From contig JAFATB010000023.1 of assembly GCA_019244185.1 (NCBI GenBank), positions 96,001 to 160,000 of the forward strand: a stretch of DNA of 64,000 nucleotides, written 5' to 3'. The notes beneath the pieces are model-generated. The model was not told the DNA's origin and made no database searches. It saw only the letters and a list, made by a program, of their open reading frames with translations. The position numbers and the translations under genes were made by a program. This document shows, piece after piece, positions 3,698-55,668 of the stretch. Source of the stretch: Acidobacteriota bacterium (GTDB lineage Bacteria; Acidobacteriota; Thermoanaerobaculia; Gp7-AA8). The stretch's first letter is position 1. Each line of letters starts with the position of its first letter.

Positions 3698-4578
3698 AGC
3701 AGCCGCCGCGTCGCGCGCCAAAGCGCGGGCGTGGTGTCGTCGCGTCGCAGCGGCGATCGCACGATGCGCGCGCCGATGCGGAGCAGCGCCGCGATGACGA
3801 ACGCGATGCGCGCGAATGCCGCCCATGTCCGCCCGTACGCGTCGCGACCCCACGTCAGGAGATCGGACCAGAGGCGTTCGGGATCGTGCGGCAGCGCGCG
3901 CGTCGCGGCGATCGTGCGGCCGAGGCCGTGGACGACGCGCGCGTCGTCGACGATGCGCACGTTCCAGCCGGCGCGGCGCGCGCTCAGACAGAAGTCGATG
4001 TCCTGACAGTAAAAGAGAAAGCGCTCGTTGAGCGGACCGGCGTCGCGCCAGACCTCGCGACGGAACGCCATCGCCGCGCCGCTGACCCAATCGACCGCGC
4101 GCGACGGTGCAGCATTGCGCCGCCGCACGAGTCGCGCGAGCGGACCCGCGCCGCTGACGACGCCGAGCATCCACGCGAGCGTCGGCGTGCGTCCGCCGCT
4201 CCACTGCGGCGTGCCGTCCTCGTTCAGCAGCCGCGCGCCCGCGATGCCGAGACGCGCGTCGGCGTCGAAGGCCGCGAACAACGCGTGCAGCGCGCCGGCG
4301 CCGACGAGCGCATCGCTGTTGAGCAGCAGCACGATGTTACCCGTCGCCGCCGCGACGCCCGCGTTCGCGGCGGTGGCGAACCCGCGGTTCGATGCGAGCC
4401 GCACGACGCGCACCGACGGTACTTCGCGCGCGAGCAGCTCCGCGGTCCCGTCGCGCGAGCCGTCGTCGGCGACGATGGCTTCCGTCGACGGCGGCATCGA
4501 CGCGAGCAACGCGCGCACGCACCGCAGCGTCATCGCCGCGGTGTCGTAGGTGGGGATGACGACGGAGAGATCGGGCAC
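3682..4578 (-). CDS. Glycosyltransferase family 2 (WbbL/rhamnosyltransferase-like)
   Basis: DLSVVIPTY, ADDGSRDG, NRGFATAANAG, LLLNSD, DWVSGAAM, FLFYCQDIDFC. Confidence 0.88.
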   Translation of the reverse strand: MPDLSVVIPTYDTAAMTLRCVRALLASMPPSTEAIVADDGSRDGTAELLAREVPSVRVVRLASNRGFATAANAGVAAATGNIVLLLNSDALVGAGALHALFAAFDADARLGIAGARLLNEDGTPQWSGGRTPTLAWMLGVVSGAGPLARLVRRRNAAPSRAVDWVSGAAMAFRREVWRDAGPLNERFLFYCQDIDFCLSARRAGWNVRIVDDARVVHGLGRTIAATRALPHDPERLWSDLLTWGRDAYGRTWAAFARIAFVIAALLRIGARIVRSPLRRDDTTPALWRATRRLLYSVS

Positions 4579-4583
4579 GGGCG

Positions 4584-5498
4584 CTACGTTACCGGAACAC
4601 GCTTCACTTCTTTCCCCCTCATCCACCACGCCCCCGCCACGCACACCGCACATCCCACGATCGACAGCAGCGACACGCGCTCGCCGCGCACGACGACGCC
4701 GAGGAGCAGCGCCACGCCGGGGATGAGAAACGTCGTCGCCGACGCGCGCGTGGGACCGACGCGGCCCGAGGCAATGGTGATCGTCACGTGCGCGATGGCG
4801 GTGCCGAAGGCGCCGAGGGCGAGGAGCGAGAGGAGCGACGTCGCGTTCCAGTGCGCGTGCAGCACGTCGCGCACGCCGAGCGGCGCGGTGAGCACGACCG
4901 CTACGGCCTGCGCGCGCCAGATCACCGGCAGTGCGCCGTAGCGTTGCTGCAGCGGCTTGGCGATGCCGAGGGCGAAGCCGTACGACACGAGCGCGGCGAG
5001 GATGAGCACGATGCCGATCGTGCTGCTGCGTCCTTCGTGCAGCGACGGCAGCGCGAGCAACAACGAACCGAGGAGGCCGACGCCGACGCCCGTGGCGATG
5101 CGCCGCGACGGCAGGCGGCGCTCGATGGCAGTGGTCACGAGCGCGACGAACAGCGGGTTCGCGGCGTTGAGCATGCCGGTGAGCGCGGACGACACGCGTT
5201 GCTCCGCGAACGGGAACATCGTCAGCGGAAACGCGAGCCAGACGATGCCGAGGAGCGCGACCGCGGGCCAGTCCGCGCGCGCGATCGGGCGCCAGCTGCC
5301 GCGGAACAGCGCGAGCGTCGCGAAGCCGATCGCGATGCGGCCGAACGTCACGCCCAGCGGACCGACGGCGCGCAATGCCTCGGCGATGAAGAGAAACGAC
5401 GCGCCCCAGATCACGCCCGGCACCACGAGCAGCAGCCAGTCGGGCGCCGCGGCGCGCGTCGTGTCCGGAGCCACGGCAGGGGAGGCGACGGCCGTCAT
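4584..5498 (-). CDS. DMT/EamA family transporter
   Basis: IWGASFLFI, ~10 TM helices in two EamA repeats; ATGA overlap with the AhpD-like gene. Confidence 0.9.
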   Translation of the reverse strand: MTAVASPAVAPDTTRAAAPDWLLLVVPGVIWGASFLFIAEALRAVGPLGVTFGRIAIGFATLALFRGSWRPIARADWPAVALLGIVWLAFPLTMFPFAEQRVSSALTGMLNAANPLFVALVTTAIERRLPSRRIATGVGVGLLGSLLLALPSLHEGRSSTIGIVLILAALVSYGFALGIAKPLQQRYGALPVIWRAQAVAVVLTAPLGVRDVLHAHWNATSLLSLLALGAFGTAIAHVTITIASGRVGPTRASATTFLIPGVALLLGVVVRGERVSLLSIVGCAVCVAGAWWMRGKEVKRVPVT

Positions 5499-50860: not shown

Positions 50861-52252
50861 TCAGGGTCTCAGTTCCACCTCCGCGACGCCTGTGGCGATG
50901 ATGTGCACGACGATCGCGGTTGGTGTCGCAGTGACGCGTTGCGGTTCGATGGCGTCGGCGTGGCCGCGGAGTTGGACGTTGGGGGCGAGGGGGCGGGTGA
51001 GGGCGCGGGTGATCTCGTTGCGGGTCGCGGCGATGCGGGGGCCGACGGGGAAGCGGGCGGACTCGCGCATGCGCTGGCGGATCGTGTCGTGGGCGGCGCG
51101 TTCGGCGATGCGCACGAGGAAGCCGCGGCGTTTCGGATCGAGCGAGTATTCGAGATCGGGGACGGTGATCGTGGAGGAGGCGGCGTCGAATTGCGGAGTG
51201 CCTTCGAGGAACACCGCGCCGTGATAGTTGCGGAGTACGCCGCCGCGGTAATCGATCATCGCCTCGACGGCGACGCGGTTGTTCGGGGCGGGGGAGAGCT
51301 TGATCGACTCGATCGTGAGCGGGCGGCCGTTCACGTTGTACTTCTGGCCCGCGACTTCAGAAGAGGCGAGGCGCGTCGCGTCGTCGTAGGAAAGCTCGAG
51401 ATCGAAGGGCACGCGGATGCCGGTGGGCGTCTTGCCGGTGGCGACGCGGAGCGTGGGGAGCGGTTTGCGTGCGGGGGTGGGTTGGGGGCCGACGACCACG
51501 CGCGTTTGCGCGCGCATCGAGAGCGTGCTCGTCACGATCGTGCCGGAGCCGGTGATCGGGCCGAGCGCGACGTCGATGGGATCGAGCACGAGCCACACGC
51601 GATCGGCGAGGGCGACGGGTGTCTGCAGCGCGTTCCACATCTGCTGCGCCTGCGGGCGGATGCTGGTGAGGGATGGAGTGGTGCGGTCGATCGTCTTCGC
51701 GGCGAGGTTCAGTTGCTCCTCGACGACGGGAGCGACGAAGCGCGGCGTGATGTCGAAGCCGAGCCAGTTCGTCTCGCACGGCTTCGCGTAGTTCACGGGG
51801 AGGAGTCGCGTCGTCGAGCGAAGGCGCCACGCGGGATCCCAATCGAACTTCGCGTGCAGGGTGACTTCCGCTTCGCGTCGCGCCTCGGCCCAGCCGCAGG
51901 AGATGCAGGGGAAGCGGCCGCGGCACGCCTGCAGGCCGTACTTGACGGTCGTCGAGGCGTGCAGTCCGCCGCCGATCATTTGCAGGCGCAACGGTGCGCG
52001 CGCGACCGTGTACTCGATGTCGATGCCGCGTTCCGTCGTCTTGTCGGAGAACGTTTTCGGCACGCGCGCCTCGATCTCCGGGACGAGCGGCGCGAGGTTT
52101 GCGCGGATCGGCACGGCGATCGTCGACAGCTCGGCGGGCGCGGCGGCGGGTGCCTGGGCCGCGAGACGTCCGGCGAGGAGAACCGTCAGAGGGAACAAGA
52201 GACGGGGGAATCGCGCGTTACCTCGTATGATCGCAACGAGAACCTTGTTCAT
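50861..52252 (-). CDS. DUF4403 family exported protein
   Basis: STIAVPI...LVPEIEARVP, WNALQTPVAL...WLVLDP, LEGTPQFD...VPDLEY. Start uncertain (52252 or 52288). Confidence 0.7.
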   Translation of the reverse strand: MNKVLVAIIRGNARFPRLLFPLTVLLAGRLAAQAPAAAPAELSTIAVPIRANLAPLVPEIEARVPKTFSDKTTERGIDIEYTVARAPLRLQMIGGGLHASTTVKYGLQACRGRFPCISCGWAEARREAEVTLHAKFDWDPAWRLRSTTRLLPVNYAKPCETNWLGFDITPRFVAPVVEEQLNLAAKTIDRTTPSLTSIRPQAQQMWNALQTPVALADRVWLVLDPIDVALGPITGSGTIVTSTLSMRAQTRVVVGPQPTPARKPLPTLRVATGKTPTGIRVPFDLELSYDDATRLASSEVAGQKYNVNGRPLTIESIKLSPAPNNRVAVEAMIDYRGGVLRNYHGAVFLEGTPQFDAASSTITVPDLEYSLDPKRRGFLVRIAERAAHDTIRQRMRESARFPVGPRIAATRNEITRALTRPLAPNVQLRGHADAIEPQRVTATPTAIVVHIIATGVAEVELRP

Positions 52253-52291
52253 GTCCGCACTCGCAACCGGCCGTCGCCTCGGAGTCATCCC

Positions 52292-53830
52292 CTGAAGCGG
52301 ATCTCATTCCTTCCGCTCTTCTTCACGGCGCTCGCCATCGTCTTCGCGGTCGCGGTCTGGATCCGCATCCGGACGTTCGACCGCGACGAGGTCAGCGACG
52401 CGACGACGACCTCACTTGCGCGCACGTCGACATCGGCGAGCAGCGGCGCGGCGAATGCGGGCGGCGAGAACACGATGACGGTCGTTCCCGTCGGCGATGC
52501 GAATGCGCCGACGAGCCTCGAGGCCGCGGCGCGTGCGCGCGAGCAGCGCTACAACGAACTGCTGCGCAGCCAGCCGCCCGCGGCGGCGCCCGCGCCCGCA
52601 CCGGCCGCGCCGTCGCTCTTTCATCGCATCGTCGCGCCGATCGCGAGTGCGCTCGGCATCGGGGCGAAGCCGACGCCGCCGCAGCAGCAGGCGCAGTCCG
52701 CGACGCAGCGTCCGGTGGCGCAGCAGCCGCCGCAGCCGGACGACCATGCGCGCACGCCGCAGGAAGAGCGCGATCCCGACTCCGACGTCACGCCGCCGCA
52801 ACTGCGCGGCTGCGAGTTCACGCCGGCGCAGGTGCAGGACGGCGACGACACCATCTTCAGCGCCATCGTCGTCGACGACCTCTCCGGCGTGCGCAGCGTC
52901 TCGGGCGTCATCGCCAGCCCGTCGGGCGCGCCGCAGGGGTTCGCCGCGCAACGCGAAGGAGAGAGCGACCGCTTCGTCTCGAAGATCAGCATTCCGAAGG
53001 AAGCGGCGGAGGGGATCTGGACGGTCAAGTACTTGACCTTGTCCGACAACGCCAGCAACAGCATCAACCTCAACGCGGCGCAGGGGCAGCTGCCGGGCAG
53101 CGCGGCGTTCCGCGTCACGTCGTCGCGCTCCGACTCGACGGGGCCGGCGCTCAAGGCCATCTGGCTGGACCGGCCGTCGATGAAGGCGGGGGATCAGAAC
53201 ACGATCTTCGTGACCGCCGAGGATGACAAGTCGGGCGTGGCGCTGGTGAGCGGCGTGTTCATCAGCCCGTCGAAGCAGGCGCGCATCGGCTTCGGCTGCC
53301 GCGCGGGCAACAACCCGACCACATGGGAGTGCGCGGTGGCGCCGCCGACGTGTCTCGACTGCGGCACGTGGCAGCTCGAGCAGGTGCAGCTGCAGGACAA
53401 AGCGAACAACACCTCCACGTTCCGAGGGGACAACCCGATGGTCGCGCCGGTGCATCTCGACATCGCGGGCGAGAGCTGCGATGCGGGTGCGCCGTCGGTG
53501 TCGTCGCTCACGCTCGATCCGCCGGTGGTGTCGAATGCGGAGTCGACGGTCATCAACGTGCACGCGATCGTGGCGGACGACGGCTGCGGCGTCGCCAGTC
53601 TCAGCGGCCAGGCGGCCGGTCCCGCGATATCGAACGGCGCGCGGCTCTACTTCTCGTTCGATCCGTCGGCGGACGGCACGAACTTCATCGGCCACATCAC
53701 CGTGCCCAAGCATGCGGCGAAAGGCGTGTGGACGATCGCGTGGATTCAGGCGCTGGACAAGGGTCACAACCTGCGCGCGTACGCGGCGAACGATCCGGTG
53801 ATCGCGAGGGTGACGTTCCGCGTGGAGTAG
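52292..53830 (+). CDS. Membrane-anchored protein with Pro/Gln linker and three Ig-like repeats
   Basis: N-terminal TM; three ~110-aa repeats (D..PP.L...DD.SGV..VSG...G.W......D...N). Start uncertain; CTG 52292 follows GGAG. Confidence 0.72.
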   Translation: MKRISFLPLFFTALAIVFAVAVWIRIRTFDRDEVSDATTTSLARTSTSASSGAANAGGENTMTVVPVGDANAPTSLEAAARAREQRYNELLRSQPPAAAPAPAPAAPSLFHRIVAPIASALGIGAKPTPPQQQAQSATQRPVAQQPPQPDDHARTPQEERDPDSDVTPPQLRGCEFTPAQVQDGDDTIFSAIVVDDLSGVRSVSGVIASPSGAPQGFAAQREGESDRFVSKISIPKEAAEGIWTVKYLTLSDNASNSINLNAAQGQLPGSAAFRVTSSRSDSTGPALKAIWLDRPSMKAGDQNTIFVTAEDDKSGVALVSGVFISPSKQARIGFGCRAGNNPTTWECAVAPPTCLDCGTWQLEQVQLQDKANNTSTFRGDNPMVAPVHLDIAGESCDAGAPSVSSLTLDPPVVSNAESTVINVHAIVADDGCGVASLSGQAAGPAISNGARLYFSFDPSADGTNFIGHITVPKHAAKGVWTIAWIQALDKGHNLRAYAANDPVIARVTFRVE

Positions 53831-53842
53831 AGGAGAGCGCGG

Positions 53843-53880
53843 AAAAAGTTAAAGACTCGCGGTCTCTGATTCCGCGAGTC
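53843..53880 (-). terminator. Intrinsic terminator on the minus strand
   Basis: GACTCGCGG-9nt-CCGCGAGTC followed by TTTAACTTTTT on the minus strand. Confidence 0.8.
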
Positions 53881-54075
53881 CATTCCTCGGTCCGTTAACA
53901 GCGATCAGAGCGCATTCGAACCGAAACCATTCCGAAACGCCTCTGCCTCTCGGAACGAAACGCAAACCGTTGACAGCTGCAGAGGAGCATCCGGTTCGCT
54001 CGCCTCGGCATCCAGCAACCCCGAAGCGCCCCTCAGCCCGTTGACATCGTGCATGGCGCGTTCGAACTGAGGTGA
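53843..54075 (-). ncRNA. Putative modular small RNA with three repeated stem-loop units
   Basis: Own promoter (TTGACG-17-CAGATT) and intrinsic terminator; three equivalent hairpins enclosing 22 nt each; no credible ORF. Confidence 0.7.
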
Positions 54076-54080
54076 GCATC

Positions 54081-54109
54081 AATCTGAGTTCGCGGGTTGC
54101 GATCGTCAA
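54081..54109 (-). promoter_or_regulatory. Sigma70-like promoter for the putative sRNA
   Basis: Minus strand TTGACG (54109-54104), 17-nt spacer, CAGATT (54086-54081); A/T tract upstream at 54120-54131 (UP-element-like). Confidence 0.6.
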
Positions 54110-54162
54110 GTGGGTCGACAAAATTTTTTTTGCGACGGTTTGGTTGACGACTTGGCTCGGTC

Positions 54163-54191
54163 GTGACGCCGCTCGGAAATTCGAGTAGGAT
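54163..54191 (+). promoter_or_regulatory. Sigma70-like promoter for the S1 gene
   Basis: GTGACG-17 nt-TAGGAT. Confidence 0.5.
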
Positions 54192-54252
54192 ACGCGTCCC
54201 AACCGTTCTCGCGGCCGAGAACCAATCACTGAAAGGTACGCAGGAAATCCCC

Positions 54253-55668
54253 ATGAGTCAGTCGAGAGAGAACGCCGAGGCTACGTCTTTTGCCGAGGCG
54301 ATGGAGAATTTGGACCTCAAAACTCCCCAGCAGGGCGAGCTGCTTCGCGGGACGATCGTCTCGATTTCGGGAGAGGATGCCTACATCTCTTACGGTGGCC
54401 CCTCGGAAGCGGTGATGGACACCGCGGAGCTCGAGGGCCTCGACGTCGGTGACTCCATCGAGGCGACGGTCGTCAAGACGTCCCCCGAAATCCGCGTGTC
54501 GCGGAAGCTGATCAAAGGCAAGGCGTCGCTCGAGCAGTTGCGCGGCGCGTTTGAAAATCGCCTTCCGGTCGAAGGCCGCGTCACCGGCCGCAACAAGGGC
54601 GGCTTCGAAGTCAACATCAGCGGCCTGCGCGCCTTCTGCCCGCTCTCGCAGATCGCGCTCGGCAAGATCGAGAACCCCGACTCGTTCGTCAACCAGACGG
54701 TCGAGTTCCGCGTCACCGAGCTGAGCGAAGACGGCCGCCGCATCGTCGTCTCGCGCGCCGCGCTGCTCAAGGAAGCCGCCGCCGAACGCGCCGCCGAAAC
54801 GCGCGCGCGCATCGTCCCCGGCGCCGAGCTCACCGGCCGCGTGAAAACGCTCACGCCCTTCGGCGCCTTCGTCGACCTCGGCGGCGTCGACGGCCTCCTC
54901 CACGTCTCGGAGATGAGCCGCCGCCGCGTGACCGATCCCAAAGAAGTCGTCCAGATCGGCCAGGAAGTCCACGTCAAGGTCATCAAGATCGAGAACGACG
55001 GCAAGCGCATCTCGCTGTCGATGAAAGATCAGGAGCCCGATCCGTGGTACGACGTCGCCGAGCGCTACGCGCCGGGCACGCCGTTCTCGGGCCGCATCGT
55101 CCGCTCCACCGACTTCGGCTACTTCGTCGAAGTGGAGCCGGGTCTCGACGGACTCGTGCACGTCTCGCAGCTGCCGCACGGCATCAAGCCGGGCGATACG
55201 GAAGTCGCCATCGGCTCGAACGTCCAGGGCTGGGTCCGCGAAGTCGATCCGTCGAAGAAGCGCCTCTCGCTCTCGCTCCGCGCGGTCGCCACGAGCGATC
55301 CGTGGGAGTCGGCCTCGCAGCGCTACGGCATCGGCCGTGTCGTCGAAGGCACCGTGGATCATGGCGGCGCGCCCGGCATCTTCGTCGAGCTCGAGCCGGG
55401 TCTCACCGGTCTCATCCCGAACTCCGAGATCTCCGTCGCGCCCGGACAGGATCCGTCGCAGGCGCATCAGCCCGGCGAGAAGCTGATGGTGCGCATCATG
55501 AGCATCGACGCGCAGCGCAAGCGCATCTCGCTCAGCCACGAGGCCGCGAAGGCCGCCGCCGAGCGCGAGGAGTACACGAAGTTCATGGACGAGCGCGGCG
55601 ACGACAACGCCGGCGAGAGCGCGATGGCGCTCGCGTTCAAGCGCGCCATGGAAAAGAAGAACCGGTAG
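54253..55668 (+). CDS. Ribosomal protein S1-like protein (about five S1 domains)
   Basis: RAFCPLSQI, FGAFVDLGGVDGLLHVSEM, FGYFVEVEPGLDGLVHVSQL, GIFVELEPGLTGLIPNSEI. May be rpsA or a paralog. Confidence 0.9.
   Translation: MSQSRENAEATSFAEAMENLDLKTPQQGELLRGTIVSISGEDAYISYGGPSEAVMDTAELEGLDVGDSIEATVVKTSPEIRVSRKLIKGKASLEQLRGAFENRLPVEGRVTGRNKGGFEVNISGLRAFCPLSQIALGKIENPDSFVNQTVEFRVTELSEDGRRIVVSRAALLKEAAAERAAETRARIVPGAELTGRVKTLTPFGAFVDLGGVDGLLHVSEMSRRRVTDPKEVVQIGQEVHVKVIKIENDGKRISLSMKDQEPDPWYDVAERYAPGTPFSGRIVRSTDFGYFVEVEPGLDGLVHVSQLPHGIKPGDTEVAIGSNVQGWVREVDPSKKRLSLSLRAVATSDPWESASQRYGIGRVVEGTVDHGGAPGIFVELEPGLTGLIPNSEISVAPGQDPSQAHQPGEKLMVRIMSIDAQRKRISLSHEAAKAAAEREEYTKFMDERGDDNAGESAMALAFKRAMEKKNR

Follow-up and report, generated by a model that had tools for sequence, protein, structure and literature searches.

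Does the intergenic interval at positions 53843-54109 of a 64,000-nucleotide (nt) stretch of Acidobacteriota bacterium DNA (GenBank assembly GCA_019244185.1, contig JAFATB010000023.1, forward-strand positions 96,001 to 160,000; the whole stretch is hereafter called the window) hold an RNA gene, and if so, how is the RNA built and what might it do? A preliminary description, drawn from the letters of the window alone, had read the interval as an unannotated small RNA (sRNA) gene on the minus strand, with three tandem units (A1 to A3) separated by hairpins (B1 and B2). Analysis of the GC content at third codon positions (GC3) found no coding periodicity in the region. The promoter, the A8T4 tract, the A1-B1-A2-B2-A3 hairpins and the terminator are all where they had been placed, and each A unit encloses 22 nt (3+3+7+3+6), as claimed. 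Comparative analysis bears out an independent minus-strand RNA gene with a promoter, a modular structure and a terminator, and from its sequence the RNA is judged to be a previously undescribed family encoded by an independently transcribed sRNA gene. We regard it as close to certain that this is a real structured RNA gene with the following architecture.

54120..54131, minus strand: A8T4 tract, UP-element-like, 5′ of the -35 box (putative function)
54104..54109, minus strand: -35 hexamer TTGACG, TTG invariant in 28 of 28 aligned RNAs
54081..54086, minus strand: -10 hexamer CAGATT after a 17-nt spacer, pattern A.ATT invariant in 28 of 28 RNAs
53843..54074, minus strand: predicted mature RNA of about 232 nt, its 5′ end placed about 7 nt past the -10 box and its 3′ end in the U-tract
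54031..54072, minus strand: A1 hairpin with a 10-base-pair (bp) outer stem, internal loop AAC / UGUCAA, inner stem GCG/CGA and apical loop CCAUGCA (54056-54050)
54001..54029, minus strand: B1 hairpin with loop segment UGCUGG (54017-54012), complementary to the A1 apical loop
53962..53999, minus strand: A2 hairpin with an 8-bp outer stem, internal loop GAU / UGUCAA, inner stem GCU/AGC and apical loop CCUCUGC (53985-53979)
53930..53955, minus strand: B2 hairpin with loop segment GCAGAGG (53946-53940), the exact complement of the A2 apical loop
53885..53926, minus strand: A3 hairpin with internal loop AAU / UGUUAA, inner stem GCG/CGC and apical loop CUCUGAU (53910-53904)
53843..53880, minus strand: intrinsic terminator with a GC-rich 9-bp stem (53880-53872 with 53862-53854), loop segment AUCAGAG (53870-53864), the exact complement of the A3 loop, and tail UUUAACUUUUU

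Kissing-loop modules and their covariation

We observed that the apical 7-nt loop of every A unit is complementary to a loop of the hairpin that follows it, namely B1, B2 or the terminator. CCAUGCA of A1 faces UGC-UGG of B1, CCUCUGC of A2 faces GCAGAGG of B2, and CUCUGAU of A3 faces AUCAGAG of the terminator. Since each A loop pairs with the loop of the next hairpin, the repeat is an A hairpin plus its partner, a self-closing two-hairpin module. The preliminary description had taken B1 and B2 for plain spacer hairpins and the apical loops for variable sequence. Neither view survives, as the B1 and B2 loops pair with the preceding A apical loop and this pairing covaries, and the apical loops are not free, being tied to their partners through compensatory changes.

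Full-length BLASTN matches with 72-77% identity were found in five of the 60 relatives searched (genomes G018, G033, G027, G024 and G036), and the loops change together across genomes, to CUCCAG/CUGGAG in G024, to UUCUAG/CUAGAA in G033 and, at A2-B2, to CUUUGC/GCAAAG in G036. RNAalifold on seven sequences predicted 63 pairs, and compensatory changes support 17. The main alignment comprised 28 three-module RNAs from 28 genomes, leaving out the unpublished genome G024 and three two-module forms, and the structure was counted with the three loop-loop helices as pseudoknots (67 pairs, 1854 cells). Standard pairs were present in 91.4% of the 1854 cells compared with 82.4% in column shuffles, none of 500 of which reached the observed value; such shuffle statistics overstate significance, as the sequences are related, and are not probabilities. 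Slid-partner controls were paired in 32-44% of cells, a comparison that favours the proposed structure because it was first read from the window sequence itself. Changes on both sides occurred in 32 of the 67 pairs (covariation score 0.319 vs 0.161), which is the covariation in homologs that the preliminary description had looked to.

The three predicted kissing helices differ in how tightly they are kept across the 28 genomes. The A3-terminator helix was paired in 99.5% of cells with compensatory changes in six of its seven pairs, A2-B2 in 92.3% with three of seven, and A1-B1 in 75.6% with four of seven, the A1-B1 register shifting between lineages by a one-base bulge. By duplex energy, the cognate partner was the best one in 23 (A1-B1), 22 (A2-B2) and 28 (A3-terminator) of the 28 RNAs. 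The conventional stems behaved similarly: the A1 outer stem changed on both sides in seven of nine pairs, the A2 outer stem was 97.3% paired with five of eight pairs compensatory, and the terminator stem was 99.6% paired with three of nine compensatory. The B1 and B2 stems covary as well, one B1 pair being CG in 20, UA in 6 and UG in 2 RNAs, and the inner stem of the A units covaries as had been proposed. Complementary loops kept by compensatory change are what a kissing complex is expected to leave, and this is the pattern found in the alignment. Taken together, these results show more structure than chance would produce.

The fold and the flanking signals were compared between the two strands. 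The minimum free energy (MFE) fold of the minus strand consisted of the same six hairpins, at -101.2 kcal/mol (z -2.33; 5 of 200 shuffled sequences reached this energy), compared with -79.2 kcal/mol (z -1.55) for the plus strand. Paired cells of the alignment held G.U 138 times and A.C 31 times, so the earlier argument that the G-U pairs work on this strand holds. At the 5′ side, an A/T tract is kept at the A8T4 site in most of 7 and most of 28 aligned homologs, the -10 box reads TAGATT or TACATT in most relatives, and the distance from the -10 box to the first stem is near-fixed at about 8 nt in the 28 aligned RNAs. At the 3′ side, a U-rich tail lies at 53853-53843, the T-run stands 3′ of the terminator stem on the minus strand only, and T-rich tails follow a GC-rich stem in 28 of 28 RNAs, as in Rho-independent terminators. 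Three features place the RNA on the minus strand: the excess of G.U over A.C cells, the invariant TTG (-35) and A.ATT (-10) of the promoter, and the stem with a T-rich tail found in all 28. A consensus promoter and terminator scanner made no calls within 53500-54500 on either strand. It is silent on the promoter because CAGATT matches TATAAT at only three of six positions, and on the terminator because the loop has 9 nt and the scanner's limit is 8; its lack of calls says nothing against the gene.

To describe the A unit, we built a covariance model, R1, from 20 A units of seven genomes (40 positions, 12 pairs; three of the units come from the unpublished G024). In the window, A1 scored 48.7, A2 50.9 and A3 53.6 bits. 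The next match in the same genome, a single unit at C6:97740-97776 with 25.5 bits, lies in GC-rich, coding-like sequence and was judged to be chance. A strict pattern for the unit core matched the three window sites and one chance site only in the 5.3-Mb genome. Among 75 distinct units from 32 sources, G9, A11, G13, G24, U26, G27, A30, A31 and C32 are invariant, and the unit takes the form C-G / R-A-Y / G-C-N (7-nt loop) N-G-M / U-G-U-N-A-A / C-G; A3 is the best-conserved unit in most loci. Mutual information recovered the stem pairs, while all tested pairs of internal-loop positions gave at most 0.14 bits, with no hidden pairing. The internal loop thus appears to be kept as sequence and not as Watson-Crick pairs, as expected for a non-canonical motif that would be recognised by something or make a tertiary contact.

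No known family accounts for the RNA. Rfam 15 (4227 models), run over the whole window at the gathering threshold, returned only two tRNAs elsewhere; the region 53700-54400 at E ≤10 gave three chance-level matches of 15-17 bits to eukaryotic or archaeal families, and 13 homologous loci at E ≤1 gave no match on the arrays. The novelty put forward in the preliminary description therefore stands against Rfam in the window, the region and the 13 loci. 6S RNA was also considered and rejected, as the region has no RF00013 match and the genome carries its own 6S RNA at C2:175196-175395 on the minus strand (65.1 bits). In the literature on Thermoanaerobaculia small RNAs and on kissing-loop structured RNAs, we found no paper on this RNA, a survey that did not cover the supplementary motif lists of large discovery papers.

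Distribution, module number and expression

We then asked how widely the RNA occurs, using R1 at E ≤0.001 with Infernal's stricter filters, under which weak relatives could be missed. Within the same family, matches were found in 111 of 124 genomes, spread over 36 of 40 genera (107 of 120 genomes when four unpublished ones, all with matches, are set aside), and in 76 of the 84 high-quality genomes; the members without a match include G079, G090, G101-G103 and G144. An even sample of the class gave matches in 31 of 35 genomes of the family and in 0 of 115 genomes from 16 other families, and a sample of the phylum gave 4 of 4 family genomes and 0 of 146 others. An exact-pattern scan of one genome per species across prokaryotes found 84 stretches, and among the 80 that were listed, 75 are titled as Thermoanaerobaculia or Acidobacteriota metagenome-assembled genomes. 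The other five listed matches (Pseudonocardia, Rhodospirillaceae, Sporosarcina, Spartobacteria and Chitinophagaceae) were judged to be chance; R1 gave them single matches of 9.6-31.8 bits with no tandem copies, compared with 39-55 bits, in tandem, at three Acidobacteriota loci. As far as searched, the RNA family seems confined to one family of Thermoanaerobaculia (Acidobacteriota).

The number of modules varies. A chain-counting script applied to 75 acidobacterial loci found one module at 1 locus, two at 5, three at 53, four at 2, five at 6, six at 4, seven at 1 and at least eight at 3, the last figure being a lower bound because these arrays reach the end of the 600-nt flank. The median period was 73 nt in arrays of two or three modules and 79 nt in arrays of four or more. 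Natural two-module versions (A1-B1-A3-terminator) occur at loci L007 (G022), L025 (G088) and L042 (G092), each missing exactly one A-B module, which in G022 is exactly A2-B2. This suggests, on comparison of the arrays, that modules are gained and lost as whole units.

Several genomes carry more than one array. In G010, G023 and G031, which belong to the same genus as the window's genome, a six-module RNA with a period of 80 nt has its own promoter (TTGC-N17-TAGATT/TACATT) and a terminator loop complementary to the last unit. In the three six-module arrays, 17 of 18 modules have at least six contiguous loop-loop pairs, with a mean of about 8 vs about 5.4 for shuffled loops. Their internal modules share near-identical loops, so the pairs are not orthogonal, and in most modules the best non-cognate match is at least as good as the cognate one. 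The genes beside secondary arrays are unrelated to one another: in five cases they were a major facilitator superfamily (MFS) transporter with a phosphoglucomutase, a metallo-beta-lactamase (MBL)-fold protein with an EAL response regulator, an aldo-keto reductase, a cadherin-like protein and an acyl-CoA dehydrogenase. At one locus, L138 (G092:C21, about 3784-5100, minus strand), a five-module array is closely followed by a same-strand MBL-fold tRNase Z-like gene and has an EAL response-regulator gene before it; this arrangement is a single case, and other arrays show no such pattern.

Two public runs hold part of the region, both as contigs. In X2, a soil RNA-Seq run, a 156-nt contig lies wholly inside the RNA (53874-54029, word depth 51, five differing letters), and in X1, a rhizosphere run flagged as probably DNA, a 169-nt contig lies at 53878-54045. 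Two further 174-nt contigs of X1 match A3 only and then diverge, and were assigned to relatives. The flanking genes within 53500-54600 have no cover in either run, which proves nothing. These contigs are a weak hint of expression.

Neighbouring genes and comparable RNAs

The RNA gene stands between two plus-strand genes, convergent with one and divergent from the other.

54253..55668, plus strand: S1 paralog, divergent neighbour, 471 aa, four S1 domains, ATG at 54253, Pfam S1 E 1e-63
52412..53830, plus strand: gene X, convergent neighbour, about 472 aa, approximate start, plus-frame GC3 0.91

The S1 gene scored 336.5 bits with TIGR00717, under the 577-bit cut-off, and the canonical rpsA on contig C12 scored 612 bits; by these scores the window gene is a paralog and not ribosomal protein S1. 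Gene X has no Pfam or NCBIfam family match; nevertheless, it is kept next to the S1 paralog throughout the family, with 37-65% identity. It forms part of a 975-aa plus-strand open reading frame (50903-53830) that is not one gene: the first half mirrors a minus-strand DUF4403 gene at 50861-52288 (E 1.4e-78), and only the part from about 52400 shows plus-strand coding GC3. Around the best unit matches, at 31 loci, the S1 paralog is divergent upstream in 29 and gene X convergent downstream in 19. The 5′ leader of the S1-paralog gene contains a conserved hairpin, CCCAACCGUUCUCGCGGCCGAGAACC..., at 54190-54235 on the plus strand, and the same element stands upstream of the paralog in L007, L025 and L042; it could be a leader that regulates the paralog.

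The preliminary description had proposed the S1-domain protein as a partner of the RNA, and this proposal is weakened. The paralog extends beyond the range of the RNA, it is kept without the RNA between it and gene X in G015, G023 and G030, and other arrays sit at unrelated loci; what stands is that the divergent adjacency is frequent. Comparison of these three genomes indicates that the three-module gene was lost from, or never inserted at, the X/S1 site in part of the genus. Since adjacency to the S1 paralog is frequent and not obligatory, and the neighbours of arrays are unrelated, the RNA behaves as a free-standing, trans-acting gene.

Several known systems resemble the RNA in part. Like CsrB/RsmY/RsmZ and CrcZ, it is encoded by a stand-alone gene with its own promoter and terminator, presents several copies of one short motif, varies in copy number between paralogs and species, and often occupies more than one gene per genome. 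In CsrB/CrcZ-type sponges, the motifs are GGA or A-rich and lie in loops or unpaired stretches. Here, in contrast, the conserved element is an asymmetric internal loop within a hairpin that is predicted to be locked by a kissing helix. GGA occurs only in A2 of the three window units, at the junction of the stem and internal loop and not in a hairpin loop, and the position that makes it is G in 56 and A in 19 of the 75 distinct units. A CsrA sponge was therefore examined and rejected: PF02599 gave no match in the RNA's own genome, G000 (98.9% complete), and matched in E. coli, B. subtilis and T. maritima as controls. The only Hfq-like match stayed below threshold (26.6 bits vs a cut-off of 27, at C4:308613-308768 on the minus strand of G000) and is uninformative. 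Thus, of the CsrB/CrcZ logic proposed in the preliminary description, the strict CsrB sense fails, as no CsrA gene was found, and multivalent binding stays the best inference. In the broad sense of a sponge sRNA, the RNA is stand-alone and carries a conserved motif in several copies, in variable number (two to at least eight).

The loop-loop pairing also has counterparts. ColE1 RNA I/RNA II and phage phi29 pRNA likewise bring together a hairpin loop and its complement, and here all seven loop nucleotides, or nearly all, can take part. The ColE1 and phi29 kissing complexes form between molecules, whereas here each loop finds its partner in the next hairpin along one RNA, an arrangement of which a transcript holds 2 to at least 8 tandem copies. 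The purine riboswitch (L2-L3) and tandem aptamers likewise offer neighbouring hairpins joined by loop-loop pairing and tandem structured units. Unlike riboswitches, the present RNA has no enclosing P1 helix, no same-strand gene downstream, up to at least eight units and no Rfam riboswitch match. A riboswitch or cis-acting leader was rejected in addition on the grounds that the terminator points at the 3′ end of gene X, which is convergent, that the S1 paralog is encoded on the opposite strand and that no same-strand gene follows.

ToxI-type antitoxin RNAs are tandem repeats that fold into pseudoknotted units, as is the case here. ToxI repeats are short, near-identical and cut by the toxin, whose gene comes after them. 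The units here are instead diverged with compensatory changes, the orthologous 'spacers' are conserved between species and no toxin gene comes after. A type III antitoxin array was rejected for that divergence (69% mean column identity), for the antisense of gene X lying downstream and for the lack of a toxin gene; beside other arrays lie genes for transporters, enzymes and a response regulator. A CRISPR array was rejected too, since the repeats differ and covary, and the would-be spacers B1 and B2 are conserved hairpins complementary to the loops of the repeats. With GOLLD, ROOL, OLE and the raiA motif the RNA shares being a conserved, highly structured bacterial RNA found by comparative analysis, of function unknown or partly known. 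Unlike the large orphan RNAs, it is much smaller, at about 232 nt, consists of repeated near-autonomous modules, and belongs to one Thermoanaerobaculia family in the genomes searched. Resemblances to the UAA/GAN internal loop, the 11-nt tetraloop receptor, boxA and the CsrA SELEX (systematic evolution of ligands by exponential enrichment) core GGAUG are leads only. A cryo-electron microscopy (cryo-EM) study of three large orphan bacterial RNAs reported homo-oligomers, and the term 'kissing loop' appears 13 times in the paper (PMC12286853). A multi-site structured sRNA is, then, of a known kind; this architecture and this motif are new.

Possible functions of the RNA

Given this architecture, we tentatively favour a multivalent binding platform or sponge, with a confidence that falls a little short of even. 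The RNA would be a chain of three modules, each an A hairpin with a partner hairpin, the last partner being the terminator hairpin. Each module would be locked into a fixed shape by a kissing helix with at most 7 bp (6 at A1-B1 in the window), and the transcript would display several identical internal-loop surfaces (RAY / UGUNAA), three here and 2 to at least 8 in relatives. It may act in trans, binding a single kind of factor (most likely a protein) in several copies and thereby titrating or assembling it. A multivalent platform is favoured because the number of sites varies, whole modules are gained and lost, and paralogous arrays coexist; action in trans is favoured because the neighbours of secondary arrays are unrelated and the terminator faces the 3′ end of a convergent gene.

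A number of points weigh against a platform for one factor. The internal loop could serve intramolecular tertiary folding alone, for example with its adenines docking into the partner helix. Gene context (31 loci, secondary arrays and S1 orthologs) identified no binding partner, the five secondary arrays had no common neighbour gene, and the lack of PF02599 in the genome removes the classic sponge target. Full-length S1-paralog orthologs, 45-56% identical, are also present in other families of the class that gave no R1 match, and in G015 (L142, with a paralog 94% identical), G023 (L144) and G030 (L145) gene X and the S1 paralog lie 140-205 nt apart with no unit between. The RNA-library contigs show neither strand, ends nor level, and the relatedness of the sequences and the origin of the structure in the window temper the statistics given above.

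The main rival to the platform is an architectural or RNA-only machine, in which the internal loops would be tertiary contacts and the RNA a rigid scaffold, a self-assembling multimer or a nuclease-resistant structure, with no titrated protein. It accords with the near absence of single-stranded sequence, with the lack of covariation within the internal loop (as for a non-canonical tertiary motif), with the near-identical loops of six-module arrays, which make non-cognate or intermolecular pairing as good as cognate, and with the homo-oligomers reported for large orphan bacterial RNAs (PMC12286853). We consider it unlikely nevertheless. The three-module RNAs have loop pairs that differ from one another, with the cognate pair best in 22-28 of 28, which favours closed intramolecular modules, and a range of 2 to at least 8 modules is easier to reconcile with a dosage of binding sites than with one defined assembly. 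A special case of the platform would make the RNA a dedicated partner of the S1 paralog, with the four-S1-domain protein binding the modules and the divergent pair acting as one unit. The paralog's divergent position upstream in 29 of 31 loci, the spacing of about 100-150 nt between the two promoters, and the conservation of the protein within the family (74-93% identity) all suit it. We rate this case as quite improbable, however, since the paralog has orthologs in families where no R1 unit is found, since the RNA is missing from between gene X and the S1 paralog in G015, G023 and G030, which carry a 5-6-module array at another locus, since in deeper genera the RNA and the paralog are on different contigs or kilobases apart, and since no S1 gene lies within about 1.5 kb of the six-module loci.

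Three further readings rank lower still. An array of small-molecule or ion aptamers might alter the terminator (for example, by read-through antisense to gene X) or the activity of the RNA; the last module includes the terminator loop, an internal loop with invariant purines resembles a pocket, and tandem aptamers are known among riboswitches. Yet no same-strand gene lies downstream in the window, where the RNA faces the 3′ end of gene X, the neighbours of secondary arrays are unrelated, the kissing involves the loop of the terminator rather than its stem and so need not interfere with termination, and we know of no riboswitch arrangement with up to at least eight tandem units; we hold an aptamer array to be very unlikely. 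Slightly less credible again is a precursor cut into module RNAs of about 73-80 nt that act singly, like processed tandem-repeat antitoxin or guide RNAs. Its regular period (medians of 73 nt for 2-3 modules and 79 nt for four or more) and the short linkers between helices would suit cutting, but the units of one RNA differ (69% mean column identity), the variable loops pair with their own partners and not with outside targets, no nuclease or toxin gene is consistently adjacent, and the 156- and 169-nt RNA-library contigs span more than two modules, though contigs cannot exclude processing. The preliminary description had suggested such processing into units, and nothing observed supports it. 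Finally, the interval might be a plus-strand element, such as a leader of the S1-paralog gene or a 3′ untranslated region of gene X, or it might consist of DNA sites, with TTGACA-like boxes serving as promoters or operators; it does lie between two plus-strand genes, and the plus strand holds three copies of TTGACA or TTAACA. We give this reading almost no credence, because the plus-strand fold is worse (-79.2 vs -101.2 kcal/mol), G.U outnumbers A.C by 138 to 31 cells, the promoter and U-tailed terminator are conserved and oriented to the minus strand, compensatory changes in stems and loop-loop helices are not expected of DNA sites, arrays elsewhere have other neighbours, and the element is missing between gene X and the S1 paralog in same-genus genomes. 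The idea that UGUCAA matters as the complement of the -35 box likewise found no support in anything observed.

What would the RNA mean for its hosts? The host family is common in soil and permafrost metagenomes, judging by record titles, and no cultured strain is among the listed relatives; therefore, almost nothing is known of the RNA biology of this lineage. The structural case is strong; the significance is bounded by the range as searched, which is one bacterial family, and by a function that is so far only proposed. A bolder view, which we think possible and rather doubtful, is of a new RNA class of self-closing modules, a natural scaffold that nucleates a ribonucleoprotein (RNP) or forms an RNA-only device, and an abundant, housekeeping-like RNA of a widespread soil lineage. 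We know of no natural counterpart to tandem self-closing kissing-loop modules with the terminator as the last partner, and the module design resembles those of RNA nanotechnology. The covariance model provides an annotation handle for the RNA family. Kept in nearly every family genome searched, with covariation at the level of pseudoknots, the RNA is a concrete new object for studies of RNA structure and of RNA-protein interaction.

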